From Candidatus Aenigmatarchaeota archaeon (GTDB lineage: Archaea; Aenigmatarchaeota; Aenigmatarchaeia; CG10238-14; SpSt-28): a stretch of DNA of 13,474 bases. The notes beneath the pieces were generated by a model. The model was not told where the DNA came from and ran no database searches. It worked only from the letters and a program-made list of their open reading frames with translations. This document shows, piece after piece, positions 584 to 3,790 of this stretch. Every line of letters starts with the position of its first letter. The first letter of the stretch is position 1. Position numbers and translations under genes: made by a program. Location of the stretch: assembly GCA_032249395.1 (NCBI GenBank), contig JAVVFY010000013.1, positions 1 to 13,474 on the forward strand, given 5' to 3'.

Positions 584-715
584 TACGGCTACCTTGTGGC
601 GACTTAGCCCCCCTCGCGGAGCTCCCACTCGACCCTTTTGGGGCCTCGAGGGAGCTCCACTCGGTTGGCTTGACGGGCGGTGTGTGCAAGGGGCAGGGAC
701 GTATTCGGCGAACGT

Positions 716-802
716 GTTCATGGTGGCAAGATGATCTTTGGCTCTATTTCCTCATCTTTTAATCTGGAGTAGTGCATGCTAATCATTCTCACCTTACCAC
801 CA
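716..802 (-). ncRNA. 87-nt BHB intron after ~A1363 (helix 43 loop); putative box C/D guide RNA
   Basis: Canonical BHB: GGCGAACG-UCAU-CA^U-GGUGGUAAG / CUUGCCACC-AUGA-AC^A-CGUUCGCC. Inside: AUGAUUA(780-786)-guide-CAGA(763-766)-UUAA-AAGAUGA(752-758)-guide-AAGA(735-738). Confidence 0.9.
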
Positions 803-960
803 TGATGACGTTCGCCTACTAGGGATTCCGGCTTCACGAGGGCGAGTTACAGCCCTCGATCCGAACTGGGCGCGCTTTTAGGGGATTTGCTCCCCCTTTC
901 GGGGTGGCATCCCATTGTAGCGCGCATTGTGACGCGCGTGTGGCCCAGGGCTTTCGGAGC

Positions 961-991
961 TTTCGCCGAGAGAGCCAGCAGCTCAGCTCGT
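961..991 (-). other. 31-nt BHB-like mini-intron after U1205
   Basis: Interrupts the conserved GGUCCGUAU|GCUCCGAA; bulges AU^A and AA^G, imperfect central helix CCGU/GCGA, intron helix CGAG/CUCG then GAGC/GCUC. 1205 is a known archaeal 16S intron site. Confidence 0.88.
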
Positions 992-1288
992 ATACGGACC
1001 TACCGTCGCCCCCTCCTTCCTCCCACTTATCGCGGGCAGTCCCCCATGAGTGCCTCCCTTCCGGAGAAGGGAATGGCAACATGGGGCGGGGGTCTCGCTC
1101 GTTAACCGACTTAACGGCACGCCTCACGGTACGAGCTGACGATGGCCATGCACTACCTCTCGGCTCGTCTGGTAAGGTCTTCAGCCTGACCTTCATCCTG
1201 CCGTCAGCCCTGGTAAGATTCTCGGTGTTGAGTCCGATTGAACCGCACGTCCCACCCCTTGTGTGCCCCCCCGCCAATTCCCTTAAGT

Positions 1289-1338: not shown

Positions 1339-1449
1339 TTCACCCTTGCGGGCGTACTCCCCAGGCGGCCCGCTTAACACTTACGCTCCGCCACCGCACG
1401 CTCCCGAAGAGCGTGCGACAGCAAGCGGGCATCGTTTACGGCTAGGACT

Positions 1450-1553
1450 TTCCCGCATGAGTTAGAGAAAATCCTAGCCATATGGGAGCAAATCATATAT
1501 CAGAGGATTAGATATTCCTCATCTTTAGAATCGGAAGATACCCTAACTCATGT
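1450..1553 (-). ncRNA. 104-nt BHB intron after ~U801; putative box C/D guide RNA
   Basis: CCCG-GU^A-CAUGAGUUAG / CUAACUCAUG-CGGG-AA^A; removal restores AUACCCCGGU|AGUCC. Inside: AAGAUGA(1519-1525)-guide-CUGA(1500-1503)-UAU-AUGAUUU(1490-1496); no clear D box. Confidence 0.88.
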
Positions 1554-2986: not shown

Positions 2987-3790
2987 TTATCCCCATCGGG
3001 CTACCTGTAAAGCTAAGGCAGAAAGATCGTTAATAAAAATAAAATCAAAAGCGTCTTTTAACAACTCTTGTTGATATGGTGTTATTGGCAAATTTGAAAA
3101 CAAAACTAATACTGAAGTTATTTCTGGATAAAGTTTTTTTAATCTAAAGCCTCTTAGTGCAACTCTTTCAATTATTGCATATCTGTGAGAGTATTTTGTT
3201 GATGAAGTAGAGGTAACAAGAATTGCTATTTTCTTTTTTGGAATGAAAATATCTACATTTATTTTTCCCACATATTTGTGAACTTCAATATCGCTTTCGC
3301 TAAGACCACCGTTTTTAAGGTATTCTATTACTTTCTTTTCGTCTTCTCTCACTATTTCTCTTCTTGCTGCTTTTTCTAGTATTTCGCGATAATTGTTTGA
3401 AGAAATATAGTTGATTATGCTTTTTCTTATTTTGTTCTTAATTTCTTCTCTTTTTTGAGGAAAGAATATCTTCTCCAGATTTGTATAGAAAAGTTTGTCA
3501 ACATCTTTAGAGTGGCTTATAGTTTCGATGGTCTCTTGAATGAAAGCCATTAATTTTTTTAATTTTGTATGATTTCTAATTTGCTTAATTCTACCACATT
3601 CGTAATCGCTGATTGATGGATCTACGTTTCTCTTAAAATCTTCTTGCTTAATTCCTCTGAGTATTCTAAAAATCTTTAGGCATTTTGGATTTGTTTTGAT
3701 ATAATCTTCGTTTATTTCTTTGAAATTATTTGTCGCTTTTTTGACTTCGTTGAACAATTTTATTACTTCGCTTATATTCGAGTTTACCAT
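2987..3790 (-). CDS. Intron-encoded protein: XRE-type HTH plus C-terminal PD-(D/E)XK/Vsr-like nuclease fold (candidate non-LAGLIDADG homing endonuclease, possibly inactive)
   Basis: LKIFRILRGIKQEDF...SISDYECG resembles HTH_3; EKKVIEYL...IEVHKYVGKINVDIFIPKKKIAILVT resembles a restriction-endonuclease-like core. The linear stop codon lies in the exon, beyond the 3' splice site. Confidence 0.7.
   Translation of the reverse strand: MVNSNISEVIKLFNEVKKATNNFKEINEDYIKTNPKCLKIFRILRGIKQEDFKRNVDPSISDYECGRIKQIRNHTKLKKLMAFIQETIETISHSKDVDKLFYTNLEKIFFPQKREEIKNKIRKSIINYISSNNYREILEKAARREIVREDEKKVIEYLKNGGLSESDIEVHKYVGKINVDIFIPKKKIAILVTSTSSTKYSHRYAIIERVALRGFRLKKLYPEITSVLVLFSNLPITPYQQELLKDAFDFIFINDLSALALQVARWG

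Follow-up and report, generated by a model that had tools for sequence, protein, structure and literature searches.

The closest described counterpart of the element reported here is the intron of the archaeal pre-tRNA-Trp (Haloferax volcanii; Pyrococcus sR50), a bulge-helix-bulge (BHB) intron that itself acts as the box C/D guide of the RNA in which it lies, according to the accessible part of a 2021 review (PMC7994747) in which the hosts of guides, in that same part, include tRNA introns and no rRNA introns. In the accessible part of Lui 2018 (PMC6009581), rRNA introns are mentioned only as removed before prediction. The BHB introns of archaeal 16S genes have been described by Jay and Inskeep 2015 (PMC4496867), the accessible part of which reports BHB ends, conserved insertion sites and removal by the tRNA splicing endonuclease, and distinguishes homing-endonuclease, hairpin and remnant classes; the words box, sRNA and methyl are absent from its text. 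As for helix 34 of the small subunit rRNA, four free-standing archaeal sRNAs, i.e. Sac sR6, Mka sR120, Iho sR310 and Pca sR49, have a predicted target at alignment position G1026, which equals E. coli 1050 (Dennis 2015, supplements 1 and 3, PMC4644070), and yeast Gm1271 and human Gm1328 lie in the same helix (accessible part of PMC2794176). If no indel is assumed, the latter two would both correspond to position 1051 by their offset from C1274, the equivalent of C1054 (accessible part of PMC13231172). No experimental methylation at 1050 or 1051 in archaea was found in the accessible part of PMC7005279, and our literature search, in which subscription papers were thinly covered, found no report of guides in rRNA introns. 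In this paper, we describe an 87-nt intron of an archaeal 16S gene that is likely a box C/D guide, its D' guide being complementary to helix 34 in the rRNA of the host, with 2'-O-methylation predicted at A1050.

The stretch of DNA analysed, hereafter the window, comprises positions 1 to 13,474 of contig JAVVFY010000013.1 from a Candidatus Aenigmatarchaeota archaeon (assembly GCA_032249395.1), whose genome amounts to 753 kb; the sequencing runs that contain the stretch come from hot springs in nearly all cases. The minus strand of the window carries a stand-alone archaeal 16S gene (Rfam RF01959) with about eight inserts, and 16S positions are numbered here on the E. coli row of the alignment in supplement 3 of Dennis 2015 (PMC4644070). 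The intron of interest follows 16S position 1363 (window 716-802, minus strand), and both of its junctions form a bulge-helix-bulge of the 3-4-3 type, with a UCAU/AUGA helix, CAU and ACA bulges and a 5-bp exon stem. On the 5' side (802-813, minus strand), the exon stem GAACG (813-809) is followed by the helix strand UCAU (808-805) and the bulge CAU (804-802), with the cut between 803 and 802; on the 3' side (710-721, minus strand), the helix strand AUGA (721-718) and the bulge ACA (717-715), with the cut between 716 and 715, lead into the exon stem CGUUC (714-710). The cuts predicted by the BHB leave a 23-nt helix 43 segment as in intron-less relatives. The spliced joint 715-803, at which the 87 nt are skipped, was seen in all four RNA runs examined (RNA contigs only, from four studies; six RNA runs exist), and in a 485-nt RNA contig of run X16, which shows only two differences, the intron at site 1205 is absent as well. 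Another RNA contig, of 117 nt, consists of exactly 716-802 plus 30 extra letters; as 87 + 30 fits a circle assembled with 31-mers, the excised intron may be circular. Inside the junctions, the ends of the intron form a 13-bp stem, with its 5' arm at 789-801 and its 3' arm at 722-734 (both minus strand), and the fold of the intron has a z of -5.3, with none of 200 shuffles as good. The genome encodes a splicing endonuclease (two PF01974 matches above cut-off) and contains the genes for L7Ae, Nop5 and fibrillarin.

Other introns of the same gene deserve a brief description. The 31-nt intron at site 1205 (window 961-991), likewise spliced out in 4/4 RNA runs, starts with a 9-nt piece antisense to about 1065-1073, and a further 8 nt in it are antisense to about 1040-1047. 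These two regions flank the helix 34 strand on either side; the likeness is explained in part by the BHB stem and may be due to chance. Three further introns (window 1449-1552, 501-583 and about 2350-2459) contain box-like motifs and pieces antisense to the host rRNA, facing the 790 loop, about 1408, the 3' tail and about 670; those at 1449-1552 and 501-583 are spliced in RNA contigs. Two long introns, at 2987-3790 and 1648-2283, contain ORFs of 267 aa and 211 aa, respectively, the latter with a LAGLIDADG-like motif by eye.

Within the intron at site 1363, boxes C, D', C' and D occur in this order with spacers of 10-13 nt, all four being degenerate. On the minus strand, these are box C AUGAUUA (780-786, 6/7 of the consensus), a 13-nt D' spacer (767-779), box D' CAGA (763-766, 3/4), box C' AUGAGGA (749-755, 6/7), a 10-nt D spacer (739-748) and box D AAGA (735-738, 2/4); C1 of box D' pairs with G6 of C', and box D pairs with positions 5-6 of box C. 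The guide CAUGCACUAC(U) occupies 778-768 of the D' spacer, that is, CAUGCACUAC at 778-769 and U768, followed by C767 and by CAGA at 766-763. Its target GUAGUGCAUG, at window 1156-1147, belongs to the 5' strand of 16S helix 34 (G1047-G1057, window 1147-1157, minus strand), in which A1050 is window 1154 and G1051 is window 1153. An earlier note, made from the DNA letters of the window, had proposed this pairing, and all of its coordinates hold: the D' guide forms 10 Watson-Crick pairs along 1156-1147, to which U768 adds a G-U pair with G1047, so that it has at least 9 bp with its rRNA target and a Watson-Crick pair at D+5. The assignment of D+5 to A1050 was also right, the fifth base before D' being U771, which pairs with window 1154, and the distance to the insertion site, put at about 300 nt, amounts to 344 nt in the precursor and to 313 nt without the 31-nt intron at site 1205.

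The guide 10-mer occurs at only these two places in the 753-kb genome. In 20,000 base-shuffled introns, a perfect 10-nt match anywhere in the spliced 16S was found in 3.8%, and one within the 13-nt guide slot in 0.23%; therefore, the match in this single genome is suggestive, and it is the comparative data that carry the proof. The D guide appears to be empty: its best runs are 6-7 bp in mature 16S and 23S, no run of at least 7 bp was found in 28 tRNAs, and the sequence of the D spacer is not conserved among homologous introns. Two short matches, one of 7 bp close to 16S helix 12 and one of 7 nt within the intron at site 1205, were attributed to chance. For none of the Rfam families did the intron reach the gathering score, the best C/D hit being sR19 with 16.2 bits against 45 (E 0.04); its matches to Rfam miRNA families were dismissed as hairpin noise. 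No second helix 34 guide was found elsewhere in the host's own genome.

The target was said to depart from a common archaeal sequence, GAGAGGAGGUGCAUGG. This sequence is indeed found in 6 of the 7 species in the alignment; among the relatives retrieved here, however, the commonest is GAGAGGUGGUGCAUGG, so that only position 1050 marks this subclade, U1049 being common across the class. Base 1208, the partner of A1050 in the opposite strand of helix 34 (GCUCC, 1206-1210, window 956-960, minus strand; U1208 is window 958), is U here instead of C, and by virtue of this compensation A1050 is a real rRNA variant.

The 16S region was matched in 213 of the 371 genomes of the phylum, of which 99 were read, mostly by BLAST rank, together with 26 metagenome loci. 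A guide intron at the same site and with the same layout is present in 21 of the 99 genomes; six of the 21 belong to this genus, 14 to a different family within the order and one to a different order. When the 78 distinct genomic helix 43 sequences are considered, 17 contain the guide intron, 32 no insert and 29 another insert, one of these 29 having only an upstream intron. A search of a 185,579-species collection with a loose site pattern returned mostly chance matches; among the matches listed, inserts at this site were seen in 6 of 149 loci. No clear free-standing replacement guide was found with a loose pattern that matched 113 of the 371 genomes, mostly as noise, with matches to controls being common; 11 of these candidates were read, of which two turned out to be further site-1363 introns (G085 and G098), and nine were without the C'/D layout. 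Since the guide intron is patchy in its distribution and no clear free-standing replacement was found, the mark seems to be dispensable in the class.

Some other inserts in these relatives are also worth recording. A second type of site-1363 intron (L180, L177, L100, L239 and L256) has 7 nt antisense to 1048-1054 immediately before a terminal AUGA, again in the 1051 register; in L100 these 7 nt change together with A1049, and the contig of L177 is without the target. Introns of 62-64 nt at site 1363 in L183, L204, L230 and L235, whose hosts are close kin of the guide-bearing L027, have an AUGA that resembles box C and a conserved core with GGACACCU at its end. Six loci of the same genus (L003, L004, L181, L184, L185 and L200) possess another intron, of about 95-680 nt, directly after G1057; it adjoins the edge of the guide target, and 1048-1057 stays intact in the 5' exon. 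The genome G159 (L019/L303), of the same genus and with the guide intron, has a further long insert just upstream of helix 43, at about site 1345. Finally, the 16S region of another genome of this genus (L217, G156:C57) groups far off, near a locus titled Woesearchaeota, and is likely a binning contaminant.

Guide and target could be compared in 24 distinct rows in which both the guide and a readable target were present, giving 216 cells for the nine positions 1048-1056. Rows in which the full 5' strand of helix 34 is missing (L010, L019, L178, L179, L182, L194, L197, L198, L168, L284 and L292) were left out of this count; nine of them show the partner strand, and in all nine, base 1208 agrees with the guide. 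The 216 cells comprise 210 Watson-Crick pairs, 2 G-U pairs and 4 mismatches, and when the guides were shuffled among hosts 100,000 times, the mean was 190 Watson-Crick pairs and the maximum 204. As the pattern with which guides were found fixed positions 1055-1056 and limited 1048 and 1052-1054, only 1049-1051 were free to vary; at these positions, 68 of the 72 cells are Watson-Crick, 1 is G-U and 3 are mismatched. In a direct alignment of 20 rows, both sides change in 4 of the 10 pairs, which none of 500 shuffles reached, and the true register pairs at 94.5% as against 14-53% in controls with a slid partner. The two-sided changes in these 20 rows are G-C to C-G at 1048 (one row), G-C to A-U at 1050 (seven), G-C to C-G at 1051 (two) and U-A to C-G at 1052 (one). 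The tenth pair, at 1057, is kept in 13 of the 20 rows, thus the conserved duplex is one of 9 bp.

Joint changes of guide and target were placed on a host tree from which helix 34 and the intron had been left out, and six of them fall on five branches (one at 1048, two at 1050, two at 1051 and one at 1052). When guide changes were placed at random according to branch length, six coincidences arose in 0 of 2,000,000 draws and five in 20. Independent-pair tests were 2/2 and 1/1 concordant (p 0.5 and 1), with too few pairs for significance. The nearest contrast lies within the genus, where L003 and L021 combine G1050 with a guide C, and the present subclade combines A1050 with a guide U. One clade of all A1050 hosts, a group that was delimited by this trait once the 104-row tree had been seen, is rejected with a p-AU of 5.7e-8; A1050 with guide U has consequently arisen at least twice, and to call the target lineage-specific, as the earlier note did, was an overstatement. 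On the other hand, its reading of guide-target co-evolution is supported by the matched changes in relatives: one of the outcomes named as fatal to that reading was that relatives with a different 1049-1051 keep the same intron sequence, and relatives that differ in 1048-1052 were found to carry guides with the matching changes.

Departures from this pattern are few. Changes in the guide only were seen in L013, which has a mismatch at its own D+5, and in L016 and L187, where the change gives a wobble; no recognisable D' is left in L016 or L190. L188, a metagenome 16S with three mismatches, is the only row in which the target departs without the guide following. It was rejected as a counter-example since it resembles one family at 98.5% over the 5' part but a different family, at 94.7%, over the 3' part; this mosaic is an assembly chimera or a natural recombinant in which the family switches between the strands of helix 34. 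It was nonetheless kept in all counts. Covariation was also found between boxes C and D, as needed by the K-turn: C6:D1 pair in 19 of 24 introns and C5:D2 in 21 of 24, compared with 11.3 and 15.7 in shuffles (p 0.0007 and 0.0017, values that kinship inflates). Compensatory change between intron and target about 300 nt apart shows selection on the intron sequence by the host rRNA.

We propose that the BHB in the 16S precursor would be cut by the splicing endonuclease, that ligation would free the intron, probably as a circle, and that the excised intron would bind L7Ae, Nop5 and fibrillarin, the steps of cleavage, ligation and RNP assembly being modelled on established archaeal biology (accessible part of PMC7994747). 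The D' guide would pair with the still unfolded 1048-1057 strand, whether in its own precursor or in a different one, before helix 34 closes, and fibrillarin would methylate the ribose at D+5. Selection for this pairing would lead to each rRNA change in 1048-1052 being accompanied by a matching change in the guide.

The pairing is more secure than the identity of the methylated base, and methylation of A1050 is a prediction. Across the family, D+5 is 1051 in 19 of 24 introns and 1050 in three (this one, L010 and L194), two having no clear D'; in the 19, D' comes one base earlier than here. It is possible, though rather unlikely, that the same guide RNP methylates G1051 in this organism, as it would in most homologues. 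The C's at 767-766 would then pair with two G's of C', A765 would bulge, and the register of the family would be kept, which agrees with the majority of 19 introns, with the D' ACGA/UCGA of L003 and L021 of the same genus, where C2 pairs with G5 of the same C' AUGAGGA, and with the correspondence of 1051 to the eukaryotic site. However, CAGA retains the tandem G-A without any bulge, four other archaea have 1050 as their predicted site, and migration of targets driven by indels has been described for archaeal guides (accessible part of PMC6009581). Moreover, in L194, which the intron tree places beside this subclade at weak support (80/82), the D' box is a clean GCGA that pairs fully with C' AUGAGCA, and D+5 falls on 1050; this supports a real shift of aim. 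If methylation does take place, we thus consider 1050 the probable site here rather than 1051: most of the family would aim at 1051, and a one-base insertion before D' may have shifted the aim to 1050 in this subclade.

Covariation demonstrates pairing and not chemistry, and selection might maintain the pairing of the intron with helix 34 for a chaperone role in folding or splicing, in which 1048-1057 is held open, with little or no methylation. Such roles have been proposed for archaeal guides (accessible part of Dennis 2015, PMC4644070), and the degenerate boxes, the empty D guide, the D+5 mismatch in L013 and the loss of D' in L016 and L190 would all suit a chaperone. We nevertheless regard this as improbable, because the spacing from the duplex to D' is fixed in all homologues and the target lies at a known methylation hotspot, both of which are required of a methylation guide but not of a chaperone.

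It is even less probable that intron and helix 34 moved jointly between lineages by recombination, with no stepwise co-evolution. The intron has a scattered distribution over the host tree, the 16S of L188 is a mosaic, and a single clade of all A1050-type introns is not rejected by the intron tree (p-AU 0.065, 82 columns), all of which speak for joint transfer. However, within this genus, A-type and G-type introns fall into a single clade (96/94), as do their hosts (100/99); the host tree, for which helix 34 and the intron were excluded, rejects the single A1050 clade, and the mosaic L188 has a broken match rather than a kept one. Stepwise co-evolution of guide and target remains our preferred reading. 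That helix 34 was repeatedly copied into the intron from nearby, by inverted duplication or template switching, and that the match has no function is the least credible account and is largely refuted by covariation limited to the guide slot: although other introns of this gene contain antisense pieces of nearby exons, and the two changes on branch L027 could be a single copying event, the match is 9-10 nt long, ends at the boxes in a fixed register to D', never passes the 12-13-nt spacer, lies 313-344 nt away and keeps its register among introns only 40-50% alike (beyond the genus, identity to this intron is 35-53% outside the guide as against 7-11 of 11 positions inside it), with wobble intermediates present and boxes C and D covarying with each other too. 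In addition, the main clades of the intron tree agree with those of the host tree, and local duplication is thus unlikely, as the earlier note had held.

On the whole, we lean towards the view that Aenigmatarchaeota keep an old family of site-1363 16S introns whose only conserved cargo is a helix 34 methylation guide, which has co-evolved base by base with its target and whose aim has moved between the eukaryote-type 1051 and the crenarchaeal-type 1050. The usual reading of short rRNA introns that lack an ORF is that they are what is left of homing-endonuclease introns. If our view is true, such introns gain a host function and archaeal rRNA encodes its own modification guides; covariation is the strongest sequence evidence short of experiment that they do a job, and the question whether rRNA introns persist by supplying guides becomes testable. 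The relatives also offer a natural series (1050 versus 1051, intron present or absent) for ribose methylation beside the decoding-site base C1054 in DPANN archaea.

Compared with the known systems, the intron at site 1363 lies outside the 13 loci of Jay and Inskeep 2015 (accessible part of PMC4496867). It resembles Sac sR6, Mka sR120, Iho sR310 and Pca sR49 (PMC4644070) in a guide core AUGCAC against helix 34 and in the predicted 1050 register; unlike these free-standing sRNAs, it is an rRNA intron, and most of its homologues aim one base over, at 1051. The latter position, the family's usual aim, is by offset that of yeast snR40/Gm1271 and human Gm1328 in the same helix (accessible part of PMC2794176), a likeness that is likely due to convergence; eukaryotic snoRNAs reside in spliceosomal introns or in their own genes, not in the rRNA that they modify. 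With respect to the pre-tRNA-Trp guide, as described in the accessible part of PMC7994747, the host here is 16S rRNA, the target lies 313-344 nt from the splice site, a single working guide is predicted, and the intron is found in part of the class only. The new part is the covariation test of an rRNA-intron guide against helix 34.
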